Origin: Candidatus Altiarchaeota archaeon
GTDB lineage: Archaea > Altiarchaeota > Altiarchaeia > IMC4 > SCGC-AAA252-I15
Reading direction: 5' to 3'
DNA length: 64,000 nt
Assembly (NCBI GenBank): GCA_043813075.1
Contig: JBDRLL010000003.1
Span: 125,811-189,810, forward strand
In this document: positions 7,428 through 60,350 of the stretch, piece after piece
Layout: each line of letters opens with the position of its first letter
Position numbering within the stretch: position 1 is the first letter of the stretch
The notes under the pieces: generated by a model
Told to the model about the DNA's origin: nothing
Databases searched by the model: none
Seen by the model: only the letters and a program-made list of their open reading frames with translations
Translations under genes and position numbers: made by a program

Positions 7428-7592
7428 ATGCGTCTAGCAAGTGCCTTAAGGGATACCAGGAGGATTTTAAGGCTCACCAGAAAGCCCAAGCAGTCCGAAT
7501 TCATGGAGACTGTAAGAGTCACCAGCATAGGGATAATAGTTATCGGACTGGTGGGGGCGTTAATATTCATAATATCGAGGATAGTCGAGTAA
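7428..7592 (+). CDS. secE: Preprotein translocase subunit SecE (Sec61 gamma)
   Basis: This 54-aa ORF is missing from the track because it is under 60 aa: MRLASALRDTRRILRLTRKPKQSEFMETVRVTSIGIIVIGLVGALIFIISRIVE. It has a basic N-terminus plus a single TM helix. It lies immediately upstream of spt5, the conserved position. Confidence 0.8.
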   Translation: MRLASALRDTRRILRLTRKPKQSEFMETVRVTSIGIIVIGLVGALIFIISRIVE

Positions 7593-7593
7593 G

Positions 7594-8103
7594 ATGCCGA
7601 TATACGCTGTTAAAGCAACCGCAGGACAGGAGCGCGTAGTAGCCGAACTAGTGTACCGGGAGGCGGTTAACAGGAGGGAGGAGATACTGCGCGAGGGAGG
7701 GGAGATATACAGCATACTCTACACCACAGGACTCAAGGGATACGTGCTTGTTGAAGCAAGCGGCCCCGGTGTTGTGGAAGACCTTGCCAGGAACGTGCCG
7801 AAAACGCGTGGACTTCTATTGAAGGAGAAGGGGAACCTGGATTCTGCTGGAGTAATACCTATCAGCGACTTGGAGAACACGCTATCCCCGAAGCCGATAG
7901 TGAACGACGTGTCCAGGGGAGACTTGATAGAGCTTATCGCAGGACCATTCAAGGGGGAGAAGGCTAGGATAGCCAGGATAGACGAGGACAAGAACGAGAT
8001 AACAGTCGAGCTGATAGAGGCTGCAGTACCCATACCCGTCGTAGTTAGCGGTGAGGACATAAAGGTCATCAGGAAAGAGGAGGATGGAGAGGAGAATGGA
8101 TGA
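7594..8103 (+). CDS. spt5: Transcription elongation factor Spt5 (NusG)
   Basis: NGN-like N-terminus IYAVKATAGQERVVA and KOW motif GDLIELIAGPFKGEKARI, in secE-spt5-rpl11 synteny. Confidence 0.9.
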   Translation: MPIYAVKATAGQERVVAELVYREAVNRREEILREGGEIYSILYTTGLKGYVLVEASGPGVVEDLARNVPKTRGLLLKEKGNLDSAGVIPISDLENTLSPKPIVNDVSRGDLIELIAGPFKGEKARIARIDEDKNEITVELIEAAVPIPVVVSGEDIKVIRKEEDGEENG

Positions 8104-8773
8104 GAGCATCAGCATACTTGTAGACGGTGGTTCAGCGACCGCGGGACCGCCATTGGGCCCCGCATTAGGTCCGCTTGGTGTTAACGCGCAGAAGGTTGTT
8201 GAAGAGATAAACAAGCAGACGAAGGACTACAAGGGGATGAAGATCCCAGTAGACGTTATAGTCGACACAAGCACGAAGGAATTCAGGATAAAGATAGGGA
8301 CCCCACCCACATCAGCGCTCATACTGAAGGCTATTGGATTGGAGAAGGGCGGCGGTAAAAACGAGTTTGTGGGCGACATCGGATTCCTGCAGCTTTTAGA
8401 TATCGCCAAGAAGAAGTCGGATTCAATGCTATCCATAGAACTTAGTTCAGCCATAAAAGAGGCTGCTGGAGCATGCCAGAGCCTGAAGATAACGATATCC
8501 GGGAGAAAACCCAAGCAATTGATAAAGGAGATAAACGAGGGAGTCTTCGACGCCGTGATGGCAGGGAAGAGCACGGAGATACCGGAGGCAAAGATAGTAG
8601 AGGAAAAGAAGGTAAAGATTATAGGCGTCAAGATAGAGGAGGAGGAAAAGCCGGTTGAGGAGGAGAAAACCGAAAAACCAGGTGAAAAGCCACTAAAATC
8701 AGGTGAAAAACCCGGAAAACCCGGTGAAAAACCCTCCAAATCAGGTGAAAAACCTTCAGACGGCAAGAAGTAG
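8084..8773 (+). CDS. rpl11: Ribosomal protein uL11 with a ~65-70 aa Lys/Glu/Pro-rich C-terminal extension
   Basis: GGSATAGPPLGPALGPLGVN core. The start is ATG 8084 or 8096. The canonical L11 ends near EINEGVFDAVM, and the rest is a low-complexity tail. Confidence 0.9.
   Translation: MERRMDESISILVDGGSATAGPPLGPALGPLGVNAQKVVEEINKQTKDYKGMKIPVDVIVDTSTKEFRIKIGTPPTSALILKAIGLEKGGGKNEFVGDIGFLQLLDIAKKKSDSMLSIELSSAIKEAAGACQSLKITISGRKPKQLIKEINEGVFDAVMAGKSTEIPEAKIVEEKKVKIIGVKIEEEEKPVEEEKTEKPGEKPLKSGEKPGKPGEKPSKSGEKPSDGKK
8681..8764 (+). repeat. Four in-frame 21-nt tandem repeats (ggtgaaaaRcc...) encoding GEKPLKS/GEKPGKP/GEKPSKS/GEKPSDG
   Basis: ggtgaaaa starts at 8681, 8702, 8723 and 8744, an exact 21-nt period, inside the rpl11 3' end. 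Confidence 0.85.
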
Positions 8774-8847: not shown

Positions 8848-9477
8848 ATGAATAAAGAGAACATAATAGCGAAAATAAAGGAATGCATCGAGAAATCACC
8901 TAAACGCAAGTTCAAGCAGAATATAGACTTGACTCTTAACTTCTCAGACGTCCAGATGGAGGGTGAACACAAGCTTAACCTGAACATCCTACTGCCCAAG
9001 GGACGTGGCAAGGACGTTGAGATAGGGGTCTTTGCCGACGGAGACATGAACCTCAAGGCGAAGGAAGTGTCAAAACACGTGTTAGACAAGAAGGAGCTTG
9101 AGGGCATGGCTAGCGACAAGCGCGGTATGCGAAAGTACGCTGGTGAATGCTATGGCTTCATAGCGTCATCAGACCTTCTGCCAGTCGTCGGTAAGAACTG
9201 GGGTGTCGTCCTCGGGGTTAGGGGTAAGATGCCACAGCCTGTGCCTCCGAACGCGGACGTTAAGGCCGCCATTGAAAGATCCAAGAACACTGTGAGGATA
9301 AAATCGAAGAAAAACCCTAACATACACGTTCCCGTGGGGACTGAGGATAACAGTCCTGAGGAGCTGTTCGAGAACATACAGGCAGTATACATTTCTGTCG
9401 AGCGTGTGATACATGAGGAGAAGATAAAGTCCGCGTTCATTAAGACAACAATGGGTTCGGCGGTGAGGTTATGGTAG
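8848..9477 (+). CDS. rpl1: Ribosomal protein uL1
   Basis: KRKFKQNIDLTLNF...LPKGRGK...FIASSDLLPVVGK..LGVRGKMP is typical L1. It shares an ATGGTAG overlap with the next gene. Confidence 0.9.
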   Translation: MNKENIIAKIKECIEKSPKRKFKQNIDLTLNFSDVQMEGEHKLNLNILLPKGRGKDVEIGVFADGDMNLKAKEVSKHVLDKKELEGMASDKRGMRKYAGECYGFIASSDLLPVVGKNWGVVLGVRGKMPQPVPPNADVKAAIERSKNTVRIKSKKNPNIHVPVGTEDNSPEELFENIQAVYISVERVIHEEKIKSAFIKTTMGSAVRLW

Positions 9478-10430
9478 CCACATGGAAGAAAGACCTGGCT
9501 AAGGAGATTACTAAGGGAGTTAAGGCAGCTAAGACCATAGGCGTAGTCAAGATTGATAACATACCGTCGAAACAGATGCAGCAGATGAGGAAGACCCTGA
9601 GGGGCAAGGCAAATCTGGTAATAGCGAAGAGGAACGTTTTGAAGCAGTCATTCAGCAAGGCAAACCTTGAGGGGTTGAGTGAATACCTTGATGGTTCTGT
9701 CGGATTACTCTCCAGCGACCTTGACCCATTCCAGCTGGAAAAGCTAGTCTACAGCTGCAGGACAAACGCCCCGGCAAAAGCCGGCGCAACGGCACCATGC
9801 GATATTATAGTGCCTGCAGGCGACACTGGACTGCCGGCAGGTCCGGTGATAGGTGACATACAGGGTGCTGGCATAAAGGCGAAGATACAAGGGGGTAAGA
9901 TAATAGTACAGCAAGAGTCTGTGGTGGTGAAGGAGGGGGACCCCATAAGCGAGGAGGTCGCGACCGCCTTGATGAGGCTCAAGATACAGCCCATGAACAT
10001 CGGCCTGGATTTGAAGGCTGTTTGGAACGATAATGTGGTCTATCCCTACGAAGTCTTGCACATAGAGGAGGCTGAGACCATCAGCAGGCTACAGTCAGCT
10101 CATGTTAAAGCATTCAACCTCGCATTCAATGCTGGATTATTCATGCCAGACACGGTTAGGTTATTCATACAAGAGGCGTTCTGCAACGCCAGGAACCTGG
10201 CCATAAACGCTGAAGTGATAAACAAGGATACCGTCGACTACTTCATAGGCAGGGCAGACGCTCAGGCAAAGGCCTTGAAGAGCGTCCTGCCTGATGATAT
10301 CAAGCCGGCTGAAGAACCTGTGAAGGAGGAGGCAAAGCCTGAAGAGGTTAAAGAGACGCCTGCAGAAGAGAAGAAGGAGACCCCTAGTGAGGATAATAAG
10401 GGGGAGGCTCCTGCTGAGGGGAAGGTATAG
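9471..10430 (+). CDS. rpl10: Ribosomal stalk protein uL10 (acidic protein P0)
   Basis: It has an N-terminal rRNA-binding domain (KQMQQMRKTLRGKANLVIAKRNV) and an archaeal insertion domain. It also has a helical spine region and a charged PAEEPVKEEAKPEE tail. Confidence 0.9.
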   Translation: MVATWKKDLAKEITKGVKAAKTIGVVKIDNIPSKQMQQMRKTLRGKANLVIAKRNVLKQSFSKANLEGLSEYLDGSVGLLSSDLDPFQLEKLVYSCRTNAPAKAGATAPCDIIVPAGDTGLPAGPVIGDIQGAGIKAKIQGGKIIVQQESVVVKEGDPISEEVATALMRLKIQPMNIGLDLKAVWNDNVVYPYEVLHIEEAETISRLQSAHVKAFNLAFNAGLFMPDTVRLFIQEAFCNARNLAINAEVINKDTVDYFIGRADAQAKALKSVLPDDIKPAEEPVKEEAKPEEVKETPAEEKKETPSEDNKGEAPAEGKV

Positions 10431-10437
10431 TAGATTC

Positions 10438-10443
10438 TTTTTT
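10438..10443 (+). terminator. Oligo-T tract (T6) 8 nt after the P0 stop
   Basis: tagtagattcttttttagtc read directly. Confidence 0.3.
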
Positions 10444-10473
10444 AGTCTTGTTCTTCCGCGTTCTATAAGAGAG

Positions 10474-12594
10474 ATGTCTAGGAACAGGACTCTAGAGTAT
10501 ATCAGGGGTAGGGAAAAGCTCGTCGCTAAACTCATTAGGGAGGGGGCTCCGTTACCCCGCATCATGGAAGAGTTGGGTGTGGACGAGTCTGAAGGCAGCA
10601 ACATACGCGCTGGATTCTCAAGGGCCATCACAACCCACCCTGAACTGTCTGGCGCACTGAAGGACAGGGTAGAGTCGATTGTAGAGCAAAACCGTAGGTC
10701 CGGCAGGAACACGTCTGTGAACGAGCTGGTTGAGGCCACCGGCGTAGGCTGGTATCCTATGAAAGCGTTCGTTCATGGGAAGAAGGGGCCTGGACAGTCC
10801 ATCAACCTGACGCCTTTAGGGGACATACATGCTTCAAGGGTGGAACGGATAAAAGCCGAGGCCGCGGGGCAGGGCGGTAGGGTGAGCATCAAATCCACTG
10901 CCAGGAAGCTTGGGACCGATGAGAAGACGGCTAGCAGGCTGGTGAAGGAGGCGGGGGTGGGGGATATGACCCCTGACGCCGCTAAGAGCAGTCAAATCGA
11001 GTTCCAGGCTAAGATACTGTCTGATATTCTATCGGAACATGCTGATGCCTGTGAAATTCCGGAAACGCGTAGGCTCGTGGAGTTGAATGAGGGCGAGAGC
11101 ACAACTCCTGCGGGAAGAAGGAAGCTGGTGAAAACCACGAAGAGGGAGATAACCGCCCGGCTGGTTGGGATGCTTGGCGAGGTCAGGGCGGCCAGGTCAA
11201 GCCAGGCGAGGTCTGTGTGGGAGGAGTTGAATGAAACACGCCAGGAGCTATACTCCCCTGACGTCTGCACTGCAAGAGCCCGGTTAAGCCGTGAGCTAGA
11301 GGAGATGGGGGAGGTTACTGAGGAACAGTTAGCCACCTCACTGCAGGAGAGGGTTAACCAGACATGGTTTGGGGGCAGGGAAGTGTGCCCTTACTGGCTT
11401 CCTGAGAGGCTGGTGCGCATGGACTTGTACGGTGACGCGGACAAGGTACTGCACCCGCAGGTGCCGACACCACAGACGCTTGATGATGTGAGGGACCAGC
11501 TACTGGATTATTCCAAGAGAACGCACGGGCGTAAGAGGTACAGGGTGATACATCAGATGAGCACGCAAGACATGTCGAAGGGTGCGCCATCATTCTATTA
11601 CCTGCTTAAGAGGAAGCTGCCTGACATGGACGCCCGCCAGATAACGCAGACTGCCATATGGATTCTGACTGGGGAGGAAGGCAGGACTTACGACAGGTAC
11701 TGGGATAAGAGGGGTGTGCGTGAGGATGCTGTGGTCGGCATGCTGGAGGAGGCTGGATGGGATCCAACCGGGGTGACGACAGGCGACCTGTCTAGGAAAG
11801 CCCACGGACTGCACATGCATTATAAGAGGCATGAAGGTTCAAAATGCCTGAGAGAGAGCCTCGTGATGGCTTTAAGGGAGTTCAGTGAACTCACGCCAGA
11901 GCAGGAGAGGTTCATACTGGCGAGGAGGAACAGGCCGATGCAGATGAGGCTGATACTCCAGCACCTTGACCCAGGCAGGTCGGTTGAAGAGTACGCTGGT
12001 CTAATGGGGATAGAGAGGACTGCAGCGTACAATGTGGTGCGGAGGCTTCAGAGGGAGTTGACTGACGCCGTAGACGGGGGGGATAGCGTTAGGGAAATTG
12101 CGGACAGGTATGGTGTGGGCGCGAGGGGGATAAGCAATCTCGGACTGCGAGAGCTTGAAAGGCCGGGTGGTATTATAAGGCTGGTAGGATATCCTGTCGA
12201 AGCGGGGGATGAGATGGCTGTTAGAGGGGATATGACGTCTTTGGAAGAGCTTGCCAGGGGTTTTAACGTGCACACTCATATGCTTCAGGGCATAAGCACT
12301 GGAAGGCAGAGGCCTTCAGGGAGGGTTGAGAGGAGCGCCGGCCTGAATCGGCTTGAAGAGCATTCTAGAATGCTTGTTCAGGCGTGCGGTAGGAGGGACT
12401 ACGACGGCATGGCAAGGCTTGCAGGGGAGATAGGATGCGATGTTGAGGGGGTTAGGAAGCTTCCTGAAGGAGAGAGGGGTGTGTCAGTCACCTCAAGGTC
12501 TGGTAACATGAGCATAAGATACGTCACAGACGCCAGGCTGGATGAAATGCTAAGCCTCGCTGGAAGCATAGCTGGTGAGGCAGAATTCAGGTAA
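10474..12594 (+). CDS. Hypothetical 706-aa Arg-rich protein with at least six to seven helix-turn-helix-like units (one sigma-70 region-4/LuxR-like)
   Basis: The long ORF is trimmed to ATG 10474 (alternative 10564). It has repeated S-h-x-E-h-A-x-x-h-G units. It also has LTPEQERFILARR...SVEEYAGLMGIERTAAYNVVRRLQREL. No enzymatic motif was seen. Confidence 0.6.
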   Translation: MSRNRTLEYIRGREKLVAKLIREGAPLPRIMEELGVDESEGSNIRAGFSRAITTHPELSGALKDRVESIVEQNRRSGRNTSVNELVEATGVGWYPMKAFVHGKKGPGQSINLTPLGDIHASRVERIKAEAAGQGGRVSIKSTARKLGTDEKTASRLVKEAGVGDMTPDAAKSSQIEFQAKILSDILSEHADACEIPETRRLVELNEGESTTPAGRRKLVKTTKREITARLVGMLGEVRAARSSQARSVWEELNETRQELYSPDVCTARARLSRELEEMGEVTEEQLATSLQERVNQTWFGGREVCPYWLPERLVRMDLYGDADKVLHPQVPTPQTLDDVRDQLLDYSKRTHGRKRYRVIHQMSTQDMSKGAPSFYYLLKRKLPDMDARQITQTAIWILTGEEGRTYDRYWDKRGVREDAVVGMLEEAGWDPTGVTTGDLSRKAHGLHMHYKRHEGSKCLRESLVMALREFSELTPEQERFILARRNRPMQMRLILQHLDPGRSVEEYAGLMGIERTAAYNVVRRLQRELTDAVDGGDSVREIADRYGVGARGISNLGLRELERPGGIIRLVGYPVEAGDEMAVRGDMTSLEELARGFNVHTHMLQGISTGRQRPSGRVERSAGLNRLEEHSRMLVQACGRRDYDGMARLAGEIGCDVEGVRKLPEGERGVSVTSRSGNMSIRYVTDARLDEMLSLAGSIAGEAEFR

Positions 12595-12595
12595 G

Positions 12596-12871
12596 CTAGT
12601 AAGCCCTTATTTCCGGCAGGGGATTAGATTCAGCCTTCTGTATCGCTTTTATTCCACCCGACTTCTTTGCGATATAATAGGCGTCGAATGCGGATATGAA
12701 GCTGAGCAGAATGTTGAGTGAGAAGGCGAGCGCATAGCTTACGGGAGTGAGCTCGACTGTGGCCAGCTCCATAATGAAGAAGAGTGCGGCCCGCCATAGC
12801 CTGCCCACATAGAGCTGACCCAACCCTGCTACAAGAAAGGACAGTATTGCCGCCAGCCAAGGCTTCTTCAT
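12596..12871 (-). CDS. Small membrane protein (2-3 TM, GLGQLYVG motif)
   Basis: MKKPWLAAILSFLVAGLGQLYVGRLWRAALFF. It is hydrophobic throughout and has an ATG start at 12871. Confidence 0.5.
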   Translation of the reverse strand: MKKPWLAAILSFLVAGLGQLYVGRLWRAALFFIMELATVELTPVSYALAFSLNILLSFISAFDAYYIAKKSGGIKAIQKAESNPLPEIRAY

Positions 12872-12909
12872 GTGGATATATTAAGAACACAGGGATTAAT
12901 TAAAATGAC

Positions 12910-13728
12910 ATGGAAGTCAGGATCGACCTGCGGAAGAGCATACCAGAGAACGCTGAGGCATACTATAATACGGCGAAGAAGTCCAAGCGTAAGATTAACG
13001 GTCTTGTGAAAGCGATTGAGGAGACTAAAGGCCGGCTGGAGGGGATGCCTGAAGCAGATTCGGAGCCCACCCAGCAGGTGATAAGGAAGAAGAAAAAGAA
13101 GAGGTGGTTCGAGTCCTATCGTTGGTTCACTTCAAGCGATGGCTTCCTTGTGGTGGGGGGGCGTGACGCGGGAAGCAACGAGTCGCTGATAAAGAAGCAT
13201 CTGGAAGACAGGGACCTGGTGTTCCACGCGGAGATTCAGGGCGCCCCATTCTTCATAGTGAAAAACCCGGATGGGAAGGAGATCCCGGAGAATACGATAC
13301 TGGAGGCTGCTGAGGCTGCTGGAGCATACAGCAAGGCGTGGGGTAGGGGCATGGGCTCATGCAGCGTATACTACGTGAACCCTGACCAGGTCTCAAAGAC
13401 GCCGCCCGCAGGTGAATACCTGCCTAAAGGGGCTTTCATGATATACGGGAGGAAGAACAAGGTACATGACGTTGAACTGAAGGTTGCCATAGGATTCATC
13501 GTTGACGAGGGCGTGGAGACTGTGGGCGGCCCGGTCTCTTCAGTGGAATCCAAGACAGGATACTATGCGGTAGTCGGTGTTGGAGACGTCAAATCCAGGA
13601 AGCTTTCAGAGGATGTTGTGAAGAGCGTCTTGAGAAAGACCCCTGCGGAAGCAGGGGCTTTGATAAAGAAAACGGGCCTCGATGAAGTCCAGAAGTGGAT
13701 TCCGTCAGGGAAGGGCAGGCTCCTCTAG
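12910..13728 (+). CDS. NFACT-R (DUF814) domain protein, a short Rqc2/FbpA-related protein
   Basis: RWFESYRWFTSSDGFLVVGGRDAGSNESLIKKHLEDRDLVFHAEIQGAPF is the DUF814 signature. It is only 272 aa and shows no NFACT-N domain. Confidence 0.7.
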   Translation: MEVRIDLRKSIPENAEAYYNTAKKSKRKINGLVKAIEETKGRLEGMPEADSEPTQQVIRKKKKKRWFESYRWFTSSDGFLVVGGRDAGSNESLIKKHLEDRDLVFHAEIQGAPFFIVKNPDGKEIPENTILEAAEAAGAYSKAWGRGMGSCSVYYVNPDQVSKTPPAGEYLPKGAFMIYGRKNKVHDVELKVAIGFIVDEGVETVGGPVSSVESKTGYYAVVGVGDVKSRKLSEDVVKSVLRKTPAEAGALIKKTGLDEVQKWIPSGKGRLL

Positions 13729-14771
13729 CGCCTCCTGCTTTTCACGAAAGACTTCGGGTCGCGGAGTATGATGTAGGATGCTGTCAACACTAATAGACCT
13801 GCAGTCAACGAATCCTTTAGCTGAAATCCGAGATGCCAGTGCATCAGGGCTATTGTTGAAGACGATAATGCGGGCGGGATTAGCTTGTACACCCCACTTA
13901 TCTCCGACATCTTGGAGAACAGGAATGCTAGGGGCAGCATGAGCAGTAGGAGTGTCGACGATGCGAGGAGCACGGTTATAGTGAACCATAGGAGCGCCTT
14001 CACACACCAGGATATGTTGGATTCCACTCCCGCGAGATTCCAAGGCTCCTCAGAGAAGAAGAGCATAAGCCATAGGATTATTAGGGTGAACAAAGTGCTT
14101 ATCGGATGAGTGTACAGGTTTTTGAAGGAGCCCTTGAAGTCTATGCTGCTGGGCGCGGCCCCGACCGCAAAACACATCTGCAGGTAGAGCATTATCCATG
14201 ATAATATACTCCCATAGTCCATGCTGAGGAAGGATGATGTCATGATGGATGACGTGTGGATGAATGCGCCGATGAAGTCCTCTGGAACGTTAAGCTGCAC
14301 CGAGTTGACAACGTTAACCAGGTCTCCGCCCTGGAGATAGTTTAGCATTATCATGAGGGAGCCGCACCCAAAGAAGGGGGCGAAGGCTATGACGAACTCG
14401 CGCAACACAATCCACTTGTCCAATGGAGTCCTATAGTTAACGTAGCCCAGCATCCCTGTCTTGGGGTTTGGCTTGAACAAGGACATCCCGGTTATGTAAC
14501 ATCCTGAGAACAGGGCCGCGAAAAAGTGGGATAGCTCGTGGAGTATTGTGCCTGGGGCCATGAAAACTATGAAGGGGTAGGAGCCGAACCTCATCCGCTT
14601 TAGGACGTAGTATTCTATGAGGTCGCTTAACAGCACTTGCACTGCGAAGAGTAGGGGTATGAATGACGCGTATGAGCGGATGTAGTAGCCGTCAAGATAC
14701 GCCCATAGACAGTAGGAGGATGCGAACAATAGTATGAGGGTGACAACCCTGTTGGACAGACCGAAAACCAT
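13725..14771 (-). CDS. Polytopic membrane protein with an HExxH motif (putative membrane metalloprotease)
   Basis: ILHELSHFFAALFSG lies within a multi-TM protein. The family is not recognised. Confidence 0.5.
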   Translation of the reverse strand: MVFGLSNRVVTLILLFASSYCLWAYLDGYYIRSYASFIPLLFAVQVLLSDLIEYYVLKRMRFGSYPFIVFMAPGTILHELSHFFAALFSGCYITGMSLFKPNPKTGMLGYVNYRTPLDKWIVLREFVIAFAPFFGCGSLMIMLNYLQGGDLVNVVNSVQLNVPEDFIGAFIHTSSIMTSSFLSMDYGSILSWIMLYLQMCFAVGAAPSSIDFKGSFKNLYTHPISTLFTLIILWLMLFFSEEPWNLAGVESNISWCVKALLWFTITVLLASSTLLLLMLPLAFLFSKMSEISGVYKLIPPALSSSTIALMHWHLGFQLKDSLTAGLLVLTASYIILRDPKSFVKSRRR

Positions 14772-14831
14772 TTTGTTTAAATATTTTTAGGCTATTGATT
14801 AATCTCAGTAAACCAATAATAACGTCATATA

Positions 14832-15908
14832 ATGGACTTGAGGGAGAAGATAAAGGCTATTGAGGAGGAGATAGAGAAGACCCCATACAACAAGGCCACC
14901 CAGCACCACATAGGGAAGCTTAAGGCGAAGCTTGCTAAGATGAGGGAGAAGGAGTTCAAGGCCTCTTCAAAGAAAGGTAGTGGCGTCGGCTTCGGGGTGA
15001 GGAAGACCGGGCACGCTACCGCAGTCCTTATAGGCCTCCCTTCAGTGGGCAAGTCCACCCTGTTGAACAAGCTGACTAACGCCGAGTCGGAGGTTGCAGG
15101 CTATGACTTCACCACACTGGATGTGATACCCGGGATGCTACAGCACGAGAGCCTTAACGTGCAGATACTCGACCTGCCGGGGATAATAACGGGGGCGGCC
15201 ATAGGGAAGGGGAGGGGTAGGGAAGTCCTGTCGATGGTGAGGAACGCTGACCTGGTGATAATAATGCTGGACGCTGGTAGGACGAGCGTTTTGCATGAGA
15301 TAAAAGACGAGTTGTATGACATAGGAGTCCGGCTGGACTCGAAGCCTCCTGAAGTATCGGTTAAAAAGAAGATAAGAGGCGGGGTCTCGCTGACTTCGAC
15401 CGTTAAGCTCAGGCGGATAGATGTTGAGGAAGTTAGGGCTGTGCTGAACGAGTATGGCGTACATAACGCTGACGTGGTGATAAGGGAGGACATGACAATC
15501 GACCAGTTCATAGATGCCGTGGCAGGGAACAGGGTTTACGTCCCGTCCCTAGTGCTCGTCAACAAGATAGACAAGGGAGGGGTGAAGAACCTGGATTTCG
15601 AGCATCTGCCCATATCAGCGGAGAAGGAGGTCGGAATCGAGGGGGTTAAGGACGCTATCGTTTCAAAGATAGATGTCATAAGGGTTTTCCTGAAGCCGCA
15701 GGGAGGGGAGGCTGACATGAACGATCCGCTGATACTGAAGAATGGATCTAGCATAAAAGACCTGTGCGAGAAACTCCACAAAGACTTCCTCAAAGGCTTC
15801 AGATATGCCCTGATATGGGGGGAATCCGCGAAACACCCCGGCCAACACGTGGGCTTGAAGCACGTATTAAAAGATAAGGACGTAGTAACAATAATAAAAA
15901 GTGGTTGA
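14832..15908 (+). CDS. DRG/Obg-family GTPase with C-terminal TGS domain
   Basis: G1 GLPSVGKSTLLNKLT, G3 DLPG, G4 NKID, and a C-terminal TGS-like ..GSSIKDLCEKLHKDF... Confidence 0.9.
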   Translation: MDLREKIKAIEEEIEKTPYNKATQHHIGKLKAKLAKMREKEFKASSKKGSGVGFGVRKTGHATAVLIGLPSVGKSTLLNKLTNAESEVAGYDFTTLDVIPGMLQHESLNVQILDLPGIITGAAIGKGRGREVLSMVRNADLVIIMLDAGRTSVLHEIKDELYDIGVRLDSKPPEVSVKKKIRGGVSLTSTVKLRRIDVEEVRAVLNEYGVHNADVVIREDMTIDQFIDAVAGNRVYVPSLVLVNKIDKGGVKNLDFEHLPISAEKEVGIEGVKDAIVSKIDVIRVFLKPQGGEADMNDPLILKNGSSIKDLCEKLHKDFLKGFRYALIWGESAKHPGQHVGLKHVLKDKDVVTIIKSG

Positions 15909-15909
15909 A

Positions 15910-16593
15910 ATGAATTACTGGAAGACTATACTATTGATGGCCTTTACGGCCCTGCTCAGCGGATGCATGTGCTGCGGCGGATTCGGCCCTGGAGGCGATG
16001 ATGGCTATGAAGACGTTGATGCCGGCAGCCAGTGCAGTCCGCCATACATGGTTTTCGGGAGCGGATGCTGTCTTGATGCTAATGTGAACAGCATCTGCGA
16101 CGATGATGAGATGACGACAACCCTCATGAAAGAGACGACGATAAAAACCCAGACAACCGTGCGCGTGGAAACGACAGCCAATGATGCCACGACGACAACC
16201 ATGATGGAGCCAGCGACAACAATTATGGAGGCGACAACCACGACCATCGCAGGCAAGACTCCAGTACAGTTATGCGTGGAGAAGGCAGGATACAAGTCAG
16301 ACACTCTAATATACGTGTACAGCAACAGGTGCGGTGTGACTGAGAAGACCAAACTAACAAACGACGGGTTTAGGAAAGGCAGGGAATACCAATACATCGA
16401 CATAGGCATACTAAGCGATCAGGAGAAGGAGGTCCTAGCATGCTTCTACGGCCCATACTACAAGGGCAACATGAAGTACTCCATGTGCCCCATGCTACTG
16501 TGCCCGACGACAGGGGCCCATGAAGCGCACACAGGTTATAGTTCCATAACAGTAATGGCCGCTAGGATGATTAGGGATTGCTTCGGTGAATAA
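15910..16593 (+). CDS. Secreted lipoprotein, paralog 1: lipobox, Cys/Asp loop, Thr-rich linker, glutaredoxin-fold-like domain
   Basis: Lipobox LLSGC, the loop CLDANVNSICDDDE, a T-rich tract, and a C-terminal domain alignable to the next two ORFs (CFYG...CP). Confidence 0.6.
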   Translation: MNYWKTILLMAFTALLSGCMCCGGFGPGGDDGYEDVDAGSQCSPPYMVFGSGCCLDANVNSICDDDEMTTTLMKETTIKTQTTVRVETTANDATTTTMMEPATTIMEATTTTIAGKTPVQLCVEKAGYKSDTLIYVYSNRCGVTEKTKLTNDGFRKGREYQYIDIGILSDQEKEVLACFYGPYYKGNMKYSMCPMLLCPTTGAHEAHTGYSSITVMAARMIRDCFGE

Positions 16594-17016
16594 ATGAGGC
16601 GGATGTTATTGTTGATGGCTTTGATAGCCCTCCTACAGCCGGCGGCAGGCGAAGAAGACATGATGTACGAGACCCTGACGGAAGCATGCGTCCAGAACGC
16701 GGGCTATAATCCAGGATACGTGGCCTACGTCTACAGGAACAGGTACAAGATGGGGGGCACAAAGCCGAAGATAATGGATGCCGGGAGGAAGACGGGTGTG
16801 GGAGTGCATTTCATAGAGACTGGAATACTGACAGAGGGGGAGGAGAGCCTACTAAGCTGCTTCTACGGCACGTATTCAGAAGAGAACAGGGAATACATGA
16901 AGTATCCGAGGATAATCTGCCTTAAAAACGGTGAAGTCAACAATATTAGGAGCGGCAGGCCGGTGACAGTGCAGGCCCGCGAGATGATGTACGAATGCAG
17001 GAGGAGTATGGGATGA
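16594..17016 (+). CDS. Secreted protein, paralog 2: signal peptide plus the same glutaredoxin-fold-like domain, no linker
   Basis: Signal peptide MRRMLLLMALIALLQPAAG. The domain ACVQNAGYNPGYVAYVYRNR...SCFYGTYSEE...YP aligns with paralog 1. The start abuts the previous stop. Confidence 0.6.
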   Translation: MRRMLLLMALIALLQPAAGEEDMMYETLTEACVQNAGYNPGYVAYVYRNRYKMGGTKPKIMDAGRKTGVGVHFIETGILTEGEESLLSCFYGTYSEENREYMKYPRIICLKNGEVNNIRSGRPVTVQAREMMYECRRSMG

Positions 17017-17585
17017 AGGCTATGATAATGAGTTTAACGGCATTGCTTGTCCTAAGCGGATGCCTGTGCAATATGGGGGCTGAAGACTGCCTTGACGCGG
17101 ACAGTAACGGTGTGTGCGACAATGAAGAGAAGGCGACTAGCACGACGGTAAAGACCACCAGCACGACAAACATGCCGACACTACCACCACTTCCCGCGGA
17201 CACCACAATAGAGACGATCACCACAACCCTAGGCCCTACAACCACCACATTATCTATGGCCGAGTGTGTGGGGCAGTATCAGGTACAGAGCAATGAGGTC
17301 ATATTCCTGTATACGACAAGCTGTTGCGCCAGCCTGCACAACACAGTCAACCAGCTGGGCTCATTGAAGTTCGAGAAGATGGAATTGACTGTCATAGATC
17401 CGAGGGAGAGGAATATTCTAGGGTGCCTTGGCATAACGGACGTGAAGGAAATATCGCTCGCACGATTGTACTGTCCGTTCAACAGTGAGAGCATGTACAT
17501 ACCAAAGGAAGAGTTCGCGGGCGCCAGGGACAGGATAAGGGATTTCACGCTGAAATGCAAGGAAGACTCGCTTAAAGATGCCTGA
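17013..17585 (+). CDS. Secreted lipoprotein, paralog 3 (divergent)
   Basis: Lipobox VLSGC, the loop DCLDADSNGVCDNEE, a Thr-rich linker, and the domain ECVGQY...IFLYTTSCC...GCLG...YCP. It shares an ATGA overlap with paralog 2, and aggagg lies upstream. Confidence 0.6.
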   Translation: MKAMIMSLTALLVLSGCLCNMGAEDCLDADSNGVCDNEEKATSTTVKTTSTTNMPTLPPLPADTTIETITTTLGPTTTTLSMAECVGQYQVQSNEVIFLYTTSCCASLHNTVNQLGSLKFEKMELTVIDPRERNILGCLGITDVKEISLARLYCPFNSESMYIPKEEFAGARDRIRDFTLKCKEDSLKDA

Positions 17586-18753
17586 AGTTGTTGAATTATG
17601 CCTTAACGGCAAGAAGGTTTATATCGTAGGTACCGCACACGTCTCCGACGATAGCGTCAGGCTGGTGGAGGAGACTGTCAGGGGGGTGAAACCGGACGCC
17701 GTCGCCGTTGAACTCTGCGAGCAGCGCTTCAAGGCATTGAAGAACGAGCGCGAATGGGATGAGACGGAGATAACAGAGGTCATAAAATCCGGGAGAACAT
17801 ACCTTTTCCTAGTCCAGATACTGATGGCCAACTTCCAGAGGCAGATAGGAGACAAGATAGGTGTCAAACCAGGGTCGGAGATGCTGAAGGCCATTGAGAT
17901 AGCGGAGGAGAACAAGTCGGAGATAGTCCTCATAGACAGGGACATAACCATAACGCTGAAACGGGCCATAGGCTTGACGACGCTAAGGGAAAAGCTGAAA
18001 CTCCTCTATGGATTCTTCAATGACGTGCTAAGCGAGGGGGAGATTGACGAAGAGCTCGTGGAGAAGCTGAAGGAGAAGGACATGCTCTCAGAGCTGATGG
18101 AAGAGCTTGCCGTGGAGACGCCGTCAATAAAGAGGGTGCTGGTTGACGAGAGGGATGAGTACATGGCGTTAAGCATAGCGTCCATCGAAGCCGAGAAGAT
18201 TGTCGTGGTCGTCGGCGCCGGACACGTTGACGGGCTTAGGAGGAGGCTTGAAGAACTTGAGGGATACGTTATAGTAAGGTACAAGCAGGGTATGGGGGAG
18301 CTCATGAAAGTCGAGAAAAAGAGGAGTGTGGTGGGATATGCAGGCTACGCCATACCCCTACTATTCCTCGTGATAATAGGTTGGGGTTTTATGAATCACG
18401 GAAGCGCTATGACTTTAACTATGCTGAAGGAATGGTTCCTGATAAACGGGACGCTATCCGCGCTCGGAGCAGCCCTTGCACTAGCACACCCCCTAACCGT
18501 GTTGACTGCATTCATCGCAGCACCATTCACGTCATTAAACCCCACCATAGCGGCGGGATGGGTGGCGAGCATAGTTGAATTCAAGATGAGGAAGCCAAGG
18601 GTCAAGGACTTCAAGAACCTGCTGAAGCTGAATAGCATGGGAGACTACTGGAGGAACAGGGTAACGCGGATACTCCTGGTGATAGTATTCGCGAACATAG
18701 GGTCCAGCATAGGCACATTCATAGCCCTACCATACCTGGCAAGCCTTATTTAA
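17578..18753 (+). CDS. TraB/PrgY (Tiki-superfamily) protein with C-terminal TM domain
   Basis: YIVGTAHVSDDSV, AVAVELC and VVVGAGHVDGL motifs, plus about four C-terminal TM helices. It overlaps the previous gene by 8 nt. Confidence 0.8.
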   Translation: MPEVVELCLNGKKVYIVGTAHVSDDSVRLVEETVRGVKPDAVAVELCEQRFKALKNEREWDETEITEVIKSGRTYLFLVQILMANFQRQIGDKIGVKPGSEMLKAIEIAEENKSEIVLIDRDITITLKRAIGLTTLREKLKLLYGFFNDVLSEGEIDEELVEKLKEKDMLSELMEELAVETPSIKRVLVDERDEYMALSIASIEAEKIVVVVGAGHVDGLRRRLEELEGYVIVRYKQGMGELMKVEKKRSVVGYAGYAIPLLFLVIIGWGFMNHGSAMTLTMLKEWFLINGTLSALGAALALAHPLTVLTAFIAAPFTSLNPTIAAGWVASIVEFKMRKPRVKDFKNLLKLNSMGDYWRNRVTRILLVIVFANIGSSIGTFIALPYLASLI

Positions 18754-18788
18754 AGCCATAAAAAGACATGCTTCAATAAGATTACACT

Positions 18789-19622
18789 ATGAGACTATAC
18801 TGTGTTGTGGGGCATCCGGTCTCGCACAGCATGTCGCCAGCAATGCACAACGACGCGTTCAAGAAGCTGGGCATGAAATTCAGGTACGAGACCGCTGACA
18901 TAGGACCGGAAAGGCTCAGGGAGTTCATGACCACTGCAAGGTTCACTTACGCTGGAATGAACGTCACAATACCCCATAAAGTCGCGGTCATCGAATACCT
19001 GGACGAGCTGAGCAGGGAGGCTGAGTTGATTGGCGCAGTCAACACAGTCAAGTGCGGAGACAAGATGGTGGGCTACAACACCGATGGAATAGGCTGCGTA
19101 CGCGCGCTATGCGAGGAAGGTGTTGAAGTGAAGGGCAAGAGCGTGCTGATAGTAGGCTCCGGGGGAGCGGGAAGGGCGATATCATTCCAACTAGCGCTTG
19201 AGGGAGCCTGCGTGACGCTGTCAGACCGCCTGATGGATAAGGCTGAGGAGCTTTCAAACGAGATAAAGACGAAGGTCGGTTGTGATGTGGGGGTTGCTGA
19301 CGCCGATGCCTGCTCGTTAGGGGAGGCTCTTAAAGACGCTGACATCCTGATAAACTCGACCCCAGTAGGAATGTCGCCAAACGTGTCCGAGTCGGTGATA
19401 GAAGCCGCACTGCTGCCCAACGACATCGTCGTAATGGACCTGGTCTACAACCCTCTTGAGACGAAACTGCTTAAGATAGCGAGGGAGAGGGGCTGCAAGA
19501 CAGTGGAGGGAGTCGGCATGCTAGTCCACCAGGGAGCCGAGTCATTCAGGATATGGCTGGACGTGGAGCCTCCAGTAGACGTCATGAGGAAGGCTGTCCT
19601 CAAAGGCCTTAATCAAGTCTAG
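18789..19622 (+). CDS. aroE: Shikimate dehydrogenase
   Basis: GHPVSHSMSPAMHN, NVTIPHK, GYNTDG and GSGGAGRA. Confidence 0.9.
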   Translation: MRLYCVVGHPVSHSMSPAMHNDAFKKLGMKFRYETADIGPERLREFMTTARFTYAGMNVTIPHKVAVIEYLDELSREAELIGAVNTVKCGDKMVGYNTDGIGCVRALCEEGVEVKGKSVLIVGSGGAGRAISFQLALEGACVTLSDRLMDKAEELSNEIKTKVGCDVGVADADACSLGEALKDADILINSTPVGMSPNVSESVIEAALLPNDIVVMDLVYNPLETKLLKIARERGCKTVEGVGMLVHQGAESFRIWLDVEPPVDVMRKAVLKGLNQV

Positions 19623-20515
19623 AGGGATCCCACCAGCTTACGGTAGTTTGAAGCTAGCCCCGCTTTGACCAAACCATCCATTTCCATGATACCTGCCAGA
19701 TCATCTGGCGTAACAATTCCTCCGGATATGTGAGACTCTGCCATCGACTTGATTTTCTCCCAGTACACTGCGTCCATGCGAACCAGACTGTCAGTGAACA
19801 AATCATCTAAACGTGATGCTATGGCGTTAAGGAATGATAGTGGCATTGAACCCAGACTCTCCTTCTCTTCCATGCCAGTGAGCGAGAGGAAGTTAACCGC
19901 CGTACCAGTAAGGCAGATGAACCCCCTGCAGACCCCGAGTTTAAGACCGTTCTCGTATAGAATGCACCGGCCGTCGTCATCAAGGAAAAAACACGCCCTA
20001 GCACTGCCGCCGCACCATAGCGGAGACTTCTCGCTCAGGAGGGGCAGATTGGATAGTAGTTCGCGCGATATTGGACTTGCAGGGTTAAGCGGGGTGTGGT
20101 ATACGTAGTCGACACCATCCTCGGTTGACACATAGTGGGATTGACTCTTATCGAGCCTAATTTTTAGGTCATCATCTGCCTCATCCAGTCTGGAGCGGAG
20201 GAGAGGTGGATAACATGACTCCAGTATAAACTCGTTGAGAATAGGGGTCATCACCTTGTCGACCACAACACCTTTGTCATTGTTGAAGAAGCAGCAGGCC
20301 TTGCACTCCCGGATACTGCATTCCGGGTGATGGACTATCTTCTCGATAAAACGGGTGATGGAATCGTGAACAACCAGCATATAGTCCCGCACTTTCCGCG
20401 CGGAGTCTTCATGGGGATCACGCTGTAAATCCCCTCTGCGCGAGTCGAACCATGATGCAAGAGCGCGCCTGGATTCAACCCACTGCCTGTATCTGCCGAC
20501 CCTTACTTCCCGCAT
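19619..20515 (-). CDS. Cys-rich protein with YkgJ/UPF0153-like metal-binding motifs
   Basis: CSIRECKACCFF and CFFLDDDGRCILYENGLKLGVCRGFIC. It overlaps the larC 3' end by 13 nt. Confidence 0.55.
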   Translation of the reverse strand: MREVRVGRYRQWVESRRALASWFDSRRGDLQRDPHEDSARKVRDYMLVVHDSITRFIEKIVHHPECSIRECKACCFFNNDKGVVVDKVMTPILNEFILESCYPPLLRSRLDEADDDLKIRLDKSQSHYVSTEDGVDYVYHTPLNPASPISRELLSNLPLLSEKSPLWCGGSARACFFLDDDGRCILYENGLKLGVCRGFICLTGTAVNFLSLTGMEEKESLGSMPLSFLNAIASRLDDLFTDSLVRMDAVYWEKIKSMAESHISGGIVTPDDLAGIMEMDGLVKAGLASNYRKLVGSL

Positions 20516-21564
20516 TTCACCAAGCCCTTAGCCATTCTAAAAGACATGCCATGCTTCAAGGCAAGCCGCCTAACGTCATCGTATTCAGGCTTACACCCCA
20601 CGCCAGAGTACTTCACGCCAACCTCCTCCAGGCAACCGTCCACATTAACCGAAACACTACCCATCATGCGACGAGCCTCGAAACGCCCTAAGACAGGCTG
20701 CCTACGAACGCCCAGAGTCCCAGTCTCCTCCATGATTATGCTTGAATGCTCTTCAGGCAGGTCTGACAGGACTCTTATCAAGTAGCCGAGCCTCCCCTTC
20801 TTCATCAGGCACGGTATTACATGGACGTCAATGGCGCCTGCACCCATCAGCGACTCGATCATGAAGGAGACGTGCTCTGGAGTGCAGTCGTCGACATTAG
20901 TCTCCAGGATGAACTTATCCCGAGACTCCACAGCCCTCAGAACGTTAGGATACTCCAGCATCATTGAGCCTGCGCCAACACCGGATCTGCCTTCCGGAAT
21001 GGTGCATTCATAGCGTGAGGCGATGACTGAGAGTATGGCCGCGCCGGTCGGCGTTGTTATCTCCCTGCCTGAAGTGTGCCTGACAGGCATGCCAGAAGAC
21101 CGGATTATGTGCATTGTGGCGGGAGCTATATAACCCACCGACACGGGAGTTGCAATAACCCCAGAGTCTAATGCACCCAATTCCTCCAACGCCAGTGATG
21201 TTGAGACAGCATCCACAACACAGTCAACAGCCTCGTGCAGATGCACTTTCTTGAGTGGGACTTTATGGGCCTTAGACTCCGCCCTAGCAAGCTGCTTCAA
21301 TATCTCCAACGAAATCTTCTCGCATTTACGGGAGAGTCGGAGTGACTTCACAACATTCACCAAGTCGACATACTCCCTCGACTTGGGAGCGAATTCCACG
21401 TCAAACTTCAATGCCCTCACGCCACGACGCCTGACCTTCCTGAAACCCACCACAGCAACCCTGCGGAGGACTTTCCGTATCCGCTCAGCATCAGCACCCA
21501 AATCAACGAGCGCTGCAACCACCATGTCTCCGCTAGCACCAGCAGAGCAGTCGAGGTAAATCAT
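20503..21564 (-). CDS. larC: LarC-family nickel insertion protein (DUF111)
   Basis: The N-terminus MIYLDCSAGASGDMVVAALVDLGAD is the LarC/UPF0272 signature. Confidence 0.85.
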   Translation of the reverse strand: MIYLDCSAGASGDMVVAALVDLGADAERIRKVLRRVAVVGFRKVRRRGVRALKFDVEFAPKSREYVDLVNVVKSLRLSRKCEKISLEILKQLARAESKAHKVPLKKVHLHEAVDCVVDAVSTSLALEELGALDSGVIATPVSVGYIAPATMHIIRSSGMPVRHTSGREITTPTGAAILSVIASRYECTIPEGRSGVGAGSMMLEYPNVLRAVESRDKFILETNVDDCTPEHVSFMIESLMGAGAIDVHVIPCLMKKGRLGYLIRVLSDLPEEHSSIIMEETGTLGVRRQPVLGRFEARRMMGSVSVNVDGCLEEVGVKYSGVGCKPEYDDVRRLALKHGMSFRMAKGLVKCGK

Positions 21565-55161: not shown

Positions 55162-55232
55162 CTAGTCTCTTTTAAAGTAATCCATGTGAAAGCTTTTATA
55201 TCCTGACTCACATCCATTATACAGTAGATAAC

Positions 55233-55721
55233 ATGGTTAACGCAAGCAAGGTCTTGATACCTTCATTGATAAGCGGTATTGCGCTGGGCCTAGTGGGCAG
55301 CATAGGGGGCACTGTAATAGGGATGATCCCGTGTATAGGCTGCGCCAACTGCCTGCTGTGTTTCCTATGGCCGATACTCTCAGGCATGCTTGGTGTTTTC
55401 CTAGTCTCGAATAAACAGCCGGTCGACAACAGGGATGGTGTATTGATAGGCGCCATGTCAGGGGCTTTCGGCGGGATTACCTCGGCAATCGTGGGTGCGA
55501 TAATATTTGCCTTAAAAACAGTATTCGGTATAGGGGCTAGCTTAGTCATGCCTGCAGCAAACATGAAGAGTAGCATGAAACAAGCAGGTCTAGCAACTTT
55601 GGTTGGCGGCCTGGTCGGAATACCCCTGATGATAGTGACCTCTTTCCTGACATTCTGCTTCTGGATCATCATGGGCGCCTTAGGCGGCATGATTGGCGTC
55701 ATGGTTTTCGGGAAGAAATAG
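55233..55721 (+). CDS. Gly-rich small membrane protein (about 4 TM)
   Basis: The hydrophobic, Gly-rich sequence is chosen over the co-extensive Pro-rich antisense ORF (55217-55702). Confidence 0.45.
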   Translation: MVNASKVLIPSLISGIALGLVGSIGGTVIGMIPCIGCANCLLCFLWPILSGMLGVFLVSNKQPVDNRDGVLIGAMSGAFGGITSAIVGAIIFALKTVFGIGASLVMPAANMKSSMKQAGLATLVGGLVGIPLMIVTSFLTFCFWIIMGALGGMIGVMVFGKK

Positions 55722-55732
55722 AATCCCGTAGA

Positions 55733-56221
55733 ATGAATACTGACGTGGCAGTCTACACGGCTTTTCTCTCTGTCGCAGCAGGCATTTGCGTTCTACTGGT
55801 TGCCGCACCATACTTGACGTATTCAGGCCACATCTTCCTCGGAGGGTATGTATACAATTCTTTCTCAGGCCTGTGCCATCAGCTGCCTGAAAGGTCTTTC
55901 CACCTGTTTGGGAATAAGCTCGCTGTTTGCGCTAGAGATACTGGAGTATATTTCGGACTGCTTTTCTCAACGCTAGCATACCCGCTCGTAAGGAAGTTGG
56001 GCGACAGGAGCATACCCCCCAGATGCTGGTTCATAGCATGCATACTCCCACTGGCGGTGGACGGCACAACCCAGTTGCTAGGGCTCAGGGAGAGCAACAA
56101 CACACTTAGGGTTGCGACAGGACTGTTGTTTGGCATGATAATACCGTTTTATCTGATACCAATGTTCTCAGAGATAGCGGACGTTTTCATGGGGGAGTTC
56201 AGCAAGCTGCGGGGGGGGTAA
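55733..56221 (+). CDS. DUF2085-family membrane protein
   Basis: CHQLPERSFHLFGNKLAVCARDTGVY. Confidence 0.65.
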   Translation: MNTDVAVYTAFLSVAAGICVLLVAAPYLTYSGHIFLGGYVYNSFSGLCHQLPERSFHLFGNKLAVCARDTGVYFGLLFSTLAYPLVRKLGDRSIPPRCWFIACILPLAVDGTTQLLGLRESNNTLRVATGLLFGMIIPFYLIPMFSEIADVFMGEFSKLRGG

Positions 56222-56222
56222 C

Positions 56223-57020: not shown

Positions 57021-57080
57021 AATTGTTTTAATTAAGTGAACGAATCTAATAAATTCACATAATCTAAAAGGAGGTTTCAA

Positions 57081-57473: not shown

Positions 57474-57485
57474 GCTGTATTACTG

Positions 57486-58979: not shown

Positions 58980-59113
58980 CGGGACGTCGTCCTTGCCCTT
59001 CTTCCTGAAGCTAGAGCACTTGTCTTCAGGAGTCATGAATTCCCTGAGCGTGCACCGCTCATACCAGACGCACAGCCTGCACTCCACAATAGGAATAGGA
59101 ATACGGGGTATAA

Positions 59114-60331: not shown

Positions 60332-60350
60332 TGCCTTGAGTATCTCGCAC

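Follow-up and report, generated by a model that had tools for sequence, protein, structure and literature searches.

Several small helical nucleic-acid-binding domains are combined in a single chain in the C-terminal four-winged-helix (WH) array of SelB, in RPC62 of RNA polymerase III and in proteins with Myb-type repeats, and transposases of the IS630-Tc1/mariner and IS3 types carry short tri-helical helix-turn-helix (HTH) units in consecutive pairs. Both arrangements recur in the predicted product of an open reading frame (ORF) of 706 amino acids (aa) in a Candidatus Altiarchaeota archaeon (GenBank assembly GCA_043813075.1, contig JBDRLL010000003.1). The 64,000-nucleotide (nt) stretch analysed here (positions 125,811 to 189,810 of the contig, forward strand), referred to as the window, contains a single copy of this ORF, downstream of the gene for the ribosomal stalk protein P0. 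Unlike transposases, with two HTH modules, the protein has six, joined to a conserved core of 400 aa for which transposases have no counterpart; from the SelB, RPC62 and Myb arrays it differs in domain order and in domain partners. On balance, it is probably an accessory protein, resident on the chromosome, that binds nucleic acids, has no enzymatic activity and belongs to a family not described so far. HTH DNA-binding proteins are well known as a kind; what is new is a small multi-HTH family together with a core without recognisable fold relatives.

A selected gene in a small family

The ORF was first pointed out in an earlier note made from the DNA sequence alone, whose coordinates for it proved accurate; it starts 43 nt past the P0 stop codon (10428-10430).

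10474..12594, + strand: 706-aa ORF, with ATG at 10474 and TAA at 12592-12594

Its product is identical to the NCBI entry 'MAG: hypothetical protein ABIH11_01120 [Candidatus Altiarchaeota archaeon]', located on a contig of 190 kb. The protein is indeed Arg-rich, as the note had put it (11.6% Arg), with an isoelectric point (pI) of 8.35 and C-terminal residues EAEFR. The ATG at 10474 is favoured as the start because homologs are conserved from about aa 8 onward.

When 1.84 billion protein cluster representatives were searched exhaustively with phmmer, 17 homolog clusters were recovered at E≤1e-3, of which 10 reached E≤1e-10 and 6 reached E≤1e-30; several homologs align over their full length (e.g. 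P0002, 705 aa, 42% identity). In a word-indexed search of 5.8 billion clusters, with either the protein or the family alignment as query, the sole match was the protein itself. The family is small and without annotation. Its alignment features the motifs RLxRL, NPQVPTPxTLxEV, LTGEE, DW..R and EF..TPEQ..ARR.R...LQHLDP, followed by IADxYGVGARGI, RxDMxS..DL and a C-terminal E..F, with only six residues invariant throughout: R312, T332, P333, R416, E469 and E702.

Two near-identical strain copies of the family gene, one in L037 and one in L047, are separated by 19.5 synonymous and 12.5 non-synonymous substitutions, which corresponds to a ratio of non-synonymous to synonymous rates (dN/dS) of 0.18, compared to 0.20 for the adjacent aconitase gene. 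The codon-usage distance of the ORF is 0.114, within the span of 0.08-0.165 covered by 19 host genes, and both its AGG-dominated Arg codons and its G+C content at third codon positions (0.635) are host-like. With codon usage native, the slightly higher overall G+C content of the ORF (0.56 vs 0.51) is therefore due to its Arg/Gly/Ala-rich composition. The gene is real, under purifying selection and of native codon usage. Between the same strain copies (L037 3782-5926, L047 778-2895) dS is 0.042 for the family gene, about four times the value of 0.011 for aconitase, although the counts are small; recombination or a locally higher mutation rate may be involved.

Six predicted helix-turn-helix modules

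Structure prediction with AlphaFold2 (AF2) and a 19-sequence family alignment yielded a mean predicted local distance difference test score (pLDDT) of 83.7 and a predicted template modelling score (pTM) of 0.45 for the whole protein, and of 87.8 and 0.62, respectively, for the core alone (aa 296-706). The predicted fold is almost wholly helical. Six tri-helical HTH units were recognised by the combination of AF2, Pfam and profile tests, and a strict HTH-like motif occurs 4 times compared to 0.04 expected from 2000 shuffles. The units are as follows.

10513..10635, + strand: HTH1 (aa 14-54), with IMEELGVDE; Pfam HTH_23; AF2 helices 14-22, 27-33 and 42-54
10639..10776, + strand: HTH2 (aa 56-101), with SVNELVEATGVG; AF2 helices 56-75, 82-89 and 93-101
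10825..10950, + strand: HTH3 (aa 118-159), with SIKSTARKLGTD; Pfam HTH_28; AF2 helices 118-132, 139-146 and 150-159
10996..11118, + strand: HTH4 (aa 175-215), winged-helix-like; AF2 helices 175-187, 198-204 and 212 onward
11896..12075, + strand: HTH5 (aa 475-534), LTPEQERFILARR...SVEEYAGLMGIERTAAYNVVRRLQREL; AF2 helices 475-483, 487-496, 504-511 and 515-534
12088..12153, + strand: HTH6 (aa 539-560), IADRYGVGARGI; AF2 helices 539-546 and 550-560

Two of these matches exceed the Pfam gathering score, namely HTH_23 in HTH1 (aa 16-39, 31.7 bits) and HTH_28 in HTH3 (aa 135-158, 31.2 bits), where HTH_Tnp_1 matches more weakly. HTH5 is matched by HTH_23, HTH_28 and HTH_29, in all cases below threshold, and the region equivalent to HTH4 matches HTH_24 or MarR_2 in at least four family members. 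Other members of the family yield Pfam matches to HTH_23, HTH_24, HTH_28, HTH_29, HTH_38 and MarR_2. The most conserved HTH of the family is HTH6, in which G549, G552 and L556 are nearly invariant, and the segments of HTH2 and HTH3 are basic (pI about 10). In profile-profile comparisons HTH2 was related to HTH3 with 94% probability (P 8.5e-8), HTH1 to HTH6 with 93% (P 2.9e-7) and HTH3 to HTH6 with 73%. Judged by these profiles, HTH1, HTH2, HTH3 and HTH6 are homologous repeats, and HTH4 and HTH5 are of other types.

The earlier note had listed seven HTH-like units. All were found at the places indicated, and five are true HTH in the AF2 model; the other two, SLEELARGFNVH (aa 589) and MARLAGEIGCD (aa 646), lie within single continuous helices and are not. 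Its estimate of at least six units nevertheless holds, as the five are joined by the winged-HTH-like unit at aa 175-215 that it had missed.

The number of N-terminal modules varies between homologs: extra copies are present in P0009 and P0022 (936 aa), and none in P0004, P0005 and P0012-P0016. HTH modules have evidently been gained and lost freely within the family, as far as can be judged from the alignments. In P0009/P0022 and P0010 the N-terminal two-HTH module is repeated several times, and an HTH-like insertion of about 90 aa (LEKLPEVHRRVLHLF...IGITDGRKAKIIAEKAKRL) is found inside the conserved core of P0009/P0022, P0010 and P0013 (alignment columns 660-725).

A conserved core and C-terminal domain without recognisable relatives

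The remainder of the protein comprises three segments.

11107..11370, + strand: long helical, coiled-coil-like segment (aa 212-299); AF2 helices 212-257 (46 residues), 262-279 and 283-299
11374..11883, + strand: conserved all-helical core of 170 aa (aa 301-470), from family alignments
12238..12591, + strand: C-terminal alpha/beta domain (aa 589-706), alpha-beta-alpha-alpha-beta-beta-alpha, with the invariant E702; AF2 pLDDT 84-97

The core (aa 301-470) contains the motifs RLxRL, NPQVPTPxTLxEV, LTGEE, DW..R, GL..YY and EF and five of the six invariant residues (R312, T332, P333, R416 and E469), and the C-terminal domain houses the two units discounted above as HTH.

The protein could not be assigned to any described family, as the note had anticipated: none of Pfam, NCBIfam, PHROGs, PADLOC, PDB (sequences and folds) and BFVD (folds) gave a match to the whole protein. 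None of the Pfam, NCBIfam, PHROGs and PADLOC models extends beyond an HTH, and Pfam scans of sub-domains from every member gave no recurrent match for the core or the C-terminal domain. The best match in PHROGs (E 0.0066) is to a family of unassigned function, with no placement among terminase small subunits or phage HTH proteins; the best in PADLOC for the 706-aa protein (CasR, E 0.0054) is restricted to an HTH. Profile searches of PDB sequences were without result for the family as a whole and equally for its core and C-terminal domains. The AF2 and Foldseek check proposed in the note thus yielded a confident model and no fold relative: against PDB, all matches of the full model had E≥0.019 and represented helical-repeat noise, with a root-mean-square deviation (rmsd) above 13 Å, and the best match of the core-only model had E 0.68. 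Low-probability local fold matches include the array-type structures 1lva and 2xv4 (E>1, rmsd above 13 Å). The top BFVD matches, A0A141HSI3 and Q2XUW5, were set aside since a probability of 0.95 was accompanied by rmsd values above 37 Å; both proteins are unnamed. The only significant PDB match of the aa 462-566 profile, the 'CAP repeat' 8vd6 (E 3e-8), turned out to be a repeat protein designed de novo (PMC12339374) and was rejected, since the match does not reflect homology.

Sequence patterns of enzymes are likewise absent. No Walker, CxxC, HNH, GIY-YIG or PD-(D/E)xK pattern was detected, in agreement with the note, which had seen no Walker, zinc, nuclease or recombinase motif. The spacing of R312, R416 and Y450 (104 and 34 residues) looked suggestive of a tyrosine recombinase or type IB topoisomerase. 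This candidate was rejected, as Y450 is replaced by M or F in two members and the position at -3 from R416 is variable, and Foldseek gave no integrase or topoisomerase fold match. A literature search on Altiarchaeota stalk gene order or HTH proteins found nothing relevant.

Genomic setting of the ORF and its homologs

The ORF follows the stalk gene cluster on the same strand, and its 3′ end faces a convergent gene.

7428-7592, + strand: SecE (Pfam)
7594-8103, + strand: Spt5 (Pfam)
8084-8773, + strand: L11 (Pfam)
8848-9477, + strand: L1 (Pfam)
9471..10430, + strand: P0 (uL10), last gene of the secE-spt5-L11-L1-P0 cluster (Pfam Ribosomal_L10 and RL10P_insert), given for context only
12596..12871, - strand: convergent membrane protein gene, 91 aa, with a weak DUF6677 match; right edge of the indel described below

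The order of the upstream genes is as the note had read it, with gaps or overlaps of -20 to +74 nt, and Pfam also identifies FtsZ upstream of SecE. The note had further placed the ORF within the stalk operon, at the position where P1 belongs. The general premise is correct: among 34 archaeal P0 loci fetched from species-representative genomes, a P1 of about 100 aa ending in ...GLGALFG directly follows P0 in 30. The four exceptions are L024 (contig end), L034 (masked), L020 (Altiarchaeota) and L019, the last two being the closest relatives of the window. P1 follows P0 in none of the three genomes of this lineage (the window, L020 and L019). P1 proteins exist in Altiarchaeota: in L046 the gene (8001-8306) lies between those for ThiC and a TPR protein, far from P0, and in L037 (1328-1642) it adjoins genes for a 165-aa protein, HAD and PAC2, the closest annotated relatives of the L037 P1 being named Altiarchaeota P1 proteins. 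P1 is thus encoded away from P0 in Altiarchaeota, and the reading of the ORF as part of the stalk operon, in the place of P1, is not supported.

Comparison with L020 shows the site without the gene. Its flanking proteins are about 80% identical to those of the window and collinear from window position 1246 through P0, at which point P0 directly abuts the convergent membrane-protein gene with a 4-nt overlap and no 706-aa ORF. The membrane protein and its L020 ortholog are 47% identical, with the C-terminus conserved to the last residues. The 706-aa gene accordingly represents a clean 2.16-kb presence/absence difference between the window and L020. A K/E/P-rich tail (...EDNKGEAPAEGKV) is common to P0 of the window and of the more distant L019 but absent from P0 of L020 (285 aa), which makes a deletion in L020 more parsimonious than a recent insertion in the window. 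P0 is encoded at 9471-10430 in the window (C-terminus at 10300-10430), at 10001-10858 in L020 and at 9986-10939 in L019.

The homologs were found in unrelated housekeeping contexts.

P0022: flanked by a radical-SAM enzyme and a HIT-family protein, on an archaeal contig of 341 kb
P0018, P0002 and the L044 copy: divergent from PAC2, upstream of aconitase
P0019: on a contig of 74 kb, together with PcrB and UvrB
P0006: adjoining an amino-acid kinase
P0007: near HTH_10 and PEP-utilising genes
L045 copy: adjoining a B3_4-domain protein
P0012 (597 aa): L039 10001-11794, on a contig of 31.6% G+C with Mur ligase, DapF, YbeY, BacA and UbiA, preceded by a 196-aa HTH_17 protein

No homolog locus lies beside P0, and none near an integrase or transposase. 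The survey of synteny that the note had proposed therefore speaks against a conserved association with P0, L020 lacking the ORF at the exact site. The slot after P0 is variable and no homolog is found by P0, and we therefore see no functional tie to the stalk and regard the protein as accessory. The copies of L037 and L044 are 49% identical and both at the PAC2 position, compared to 69% identity of their PAC2 proteins, which indicates vertical inheritance at that site combined with fast evolution. L046 shares the P1...HAD-PAC2 neighbourhood of L037 but contains no family member there. About 2 kb separate the closest homolog of the ORF from the P1 gene in L037 (1328-5926). The context of the distant member P0012 (L039-L042, Logan SRR312144xx), found alike on 10 contigs, is bacterial-looking, so that the family may cross domains.

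A tentative role in multi-site DNA binding

The 706-aa protein would likely bind DNA at multiple sites. Its four N-terminal HTH modules are predicted to be flexibly linked, and HTH5 and HTH6 to be packed against the conserved helical core and the alpha/beta C-terminal domain; the coiled-coil-like segment (aa 212-299) could mediate dimerisation. Such an HTH array could recognise a DNA site that is extended or composite, or connect sites that lie apart, and the protein may act as a lineage-specific transcription regulator or chromosome-organising factor. Its gene, which would occupy a variable slot downstream of P0 in a lineage with P1 moved elsewhere, is probably transcribed from a T-rich promoter of its own, for which the spacer contains a candidate element.

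10431..10473, + strand: intergenic spacer of 43 nt, from reading of the sequence
10433-10445 (-41 to -29 from the ATG): T-rich element AGATTCTTTTTTAG, with T6 at 10438-10443
10461-10469: TTCTATAAG

T-rich elements resembling AGATTCTTTTTTAG also precede FtsZ and SecE in the window, at a distance of 20-40 nt. From its sequence, it is plausible that AGATTCTTTTTTAG serves as an oligo-T terminator of the stalk cluster, as a TATA-like box of the 706-aa ORF, or as both.

Several observations sit uneasily with an accessory DNA-binding protein. DNA binding, target site and expression are all predictions. The recognition helix of HTH6 (GVGARGI) is almost invariant across members of about 20% identity; such invariance is unusual for transcription factors with diverging targets, and could instead reflect a partner, protein or RNA, that is itself conserved. 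No fold relatives could be recognised for the core and the C-terminal domain, which together account for about 40% of the protein, and a function unrelated to DNA is conceivable for them. Both the patchy distribution and the HTH models of transposase type would also fit derivation from a mobile element. Finally, a family gene is located near a stalk gene in two genomes of the Altiarchaeota lineage (P0 in the window, P1 in L037), which could be due to chance or be the remnant of an older arrangement.

If the protein is indeed an accessory nucleic-acid-binding protein, one small undescribed family of large multi-HTH proteins would join the 'dark matter' of archaea, and its conserved core would merit a Pfam entry and a solved structure.

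Relationship to mobile elements

The main alternative is that the protein is a mobile-element relic or a domesticated protein, horizontally acquired and kept as a solitary gene, e.g. a DNA-binding subunit that descends from a transposase of the IS630/Tc1 or IS3 type, or a regulator that was once part of an integrated element. We consider this unlikely, but deserving of serious attention. All matching HTH models are of a homeodomain-like, transposase-type kind (HTH_23, HTH_28, HTH_29, HTH_32, HTH_38, HTH_Tnp_1 and HTH_Tnp_ISL3). Those above threshold in the 706-aa protein, HTH_23 and HTH_28 only, are shared with DDE transposases, HTH_Tnp_1 and HTH_Tnp_ISL3 remaining below. A weak likeness to the PAI subdomain of Sleeping Beauty, presence/absence polymorphism at two loci among related genomes, and a very sparse, patchy distribution that possibly includes the bacterial-looking contig L039 all fit such an origin, as does the faster evolution of the family gene relative to its neighbours (49% vs 69% identity, dS 0.042 vs 0.011).

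Nevertheless, DDE, serine and tyrosine catalytic signatures are absent; no member of the family has a DDE or rve match in Pfam, and the core, unlike that of DDE transposases, is all-helical in the AF2 model. The note had seen no flanking repeats and no integrase, and this was substantiated: there are no direct or inverted repeats around 10431-12595, hence neither terminal inverted repeats nor target duplications, and no integrase nearby. The gene is bordered by just 43 nt upstream and 1 nt downstream, with the ends of the neighbouring genes intact, and it combines native codon usage with a single copy, in which it again differs from transposases. No match was obtained among viral contigs (IMG/VR, scanned with a 5-sequence alignment), phage records or plasmids, and neither integrase nor other element genes were found beside any homolog. 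The position beside PAC2 is moreover stable in two lineages with copies of 49% identity. The shortened P0 tail of L020 favours a deletion there over an insertion here. The locus shows no sign of a mobile element, virus or plasmid. A recent insertion or foreign origin in particular was rejected on the basis of codon usage, the lack of repeats and the P0-tail comparison.

A possible new class of nucleic-acid-binding protein

It is also conceivable, though rather doubtful, that the protein represents a new class of large nucleic-acid-binding protein, in which the core of about 400 aa (aa 301-706) has a function not yet described in archaea. One possibility would be a lineage-specific chromosome-organising or segregation factor; another, an accessory of replication or transcription initiation that reads a conserved target via the nearly invariant IADxYGVGARGI HTH; a third, the component that recognises DNA in a mobile or selfish element consisting of a single gene and of a type not recognised so far.

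Relationship to the ribosomal stalk

A functional tie to the stalk or to translation appears very improbable. The protein might then be a regulator of the L11-L1-P0 cluster, or make up for two missing features, a P1 next to P0 and the conserved tail of P0. Consistent with such a tie are the location of the ORF on the same strand 43 nt past P0, the proximity of the closest homolog (L037) to a P1 gene, and the window P0, which lacks the usual ...GLGALFG tail. However, the protein resembles P1 (Ribosomal_60s, PF00428) in its position after P0 only: it has 706 aa compared to about 100, is basic and not acidic, has no acidic tail ending in GLGALFG and no sequence similarity. The statement of the note that it has nothing in common with P1 is borne out by the lack of a PF00428 match and by tblastn with 12 archaeal P1 sequences, which found nothing in the ORF. 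Moreover, ordinary P1 genes are present in Altiarchaeota, L020 and L019 have the same arrangement of a tail-less P0 without the 706-aa gene, other homologs occur in contexts unrelated to translation, and the L037-like P1...HAD-PAC2 neighbourhood of L046 is devoid of a family member.

The hydrophobic GLGALFG-type motif recruits translation GTPases. Besides the window P0, this conserved motif is missing from many P0 proteins of DPANN archaea among the fetched loci, and the corresponding P1 proteins retain it. Searches for P1 elsewhere in the window by regular expression and tblastn found none, matches being limited to the low-complexity tails of L11 and P0.

This negative result is the more useful one: the eye-catching place after P0 does not mark the gene as a further stalk component. 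Altiarchaeota have P1 uncoupled from P0, and what follows P0 differs from one genome to another; the expectation drawn from archaeal gene order is corrected accordingly, as it would otherwise lead to repeated false leads in this phylum.

Relationship to sigma factors and LuxR-type regulators

The earlier note had compared one unit to a sigma-70 region 4 or LuxR-type module. If so, aa 475-560 would form a region-4-type promoter-recognition module and the protein would be a sigma-factor-like or LuxR-like transcription factor, a proposal to which we assign hardly any likelihood. The resemblance lies in the four-helix layout of aa 475-534 in the AF2 model, in a start of the type L-[TS]-P-x-Q/E...R-R (LTPEQ..F.L.RR) and in a conserved I-A-x-x-x-G-V-[SG] HTH. 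Weak PDB matches to region 4 of RpoH (E 0.15, HTH6 to region 4.2) and FliA (E about 1), and a fold match to the sigma-like domain of PhyR at a probability of 0.2, point in the same direction. The four-helix topology is generic, however, with an extra helix at aa 487-496 relative to sigma-70 region 4 and LuxR-GerE, and unrelated HTH proteins give PDB matches of equal quality, the PAI subdomain of Sleeping Beauty being matched at E 0.4-1. None of 14 family members matches Sigma70_r4, Sigma70_r4_2, GerE or Sigma70_r2 at E≤1; their aa 462-566 fragments match HTH_23, HTH_28 and HTH_29 instead. The 706-aa protein itself matches neither Sigma70_r4, Sigma70_r4_2 nor GerE at E≤10. Unlike sigma-70 and LuxR proteins, it also lacks the partner domains to be expected, with no Sigma70_r2, Response_reg or autoinducer-binding match, and its host is an archaeon; it is well established that archaeal RNA polymerase works without sigma factors.

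Lastly, a spurious ORF or decaying pseudogene, as might be suspected from the annotation as a mere hypothetical protein and from the recovery of self alone in the word-indexed search, is refuted by the homologs and by purifying selection (an open frame of 706 codons, motifs conserved in 17 homolog clusters, dN/dS 0.18) and is at odds with the confident AF2 model, leaving it practically no credence.

Other features of the window

No tRNA gene was found across the 64-kb window, and no Rfam family at gathering threshold. In L020, the region after the membrane-protein gene (11138-20795) encodes orthologs of window positions 52294-60391 (a double-AAA ATPase, DUF2085, a B3_4-domain protein and others). 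From this gene order, a housekeeping block of about 39 kb (window positions of approx. 12900-52300), one gene away from the ORF, has therefore been inserted or rearranged; no integrase is located at its borders. The C-terminus of L11 (8084-8773) is extended by about 90 aa of low complexity (EKPGKPGEKPSKSGEKP...), for which a tandem repeat of 21/42 nt at 8666-8754 codes, and the L020 ortholog has a similar K/E-rich extension.

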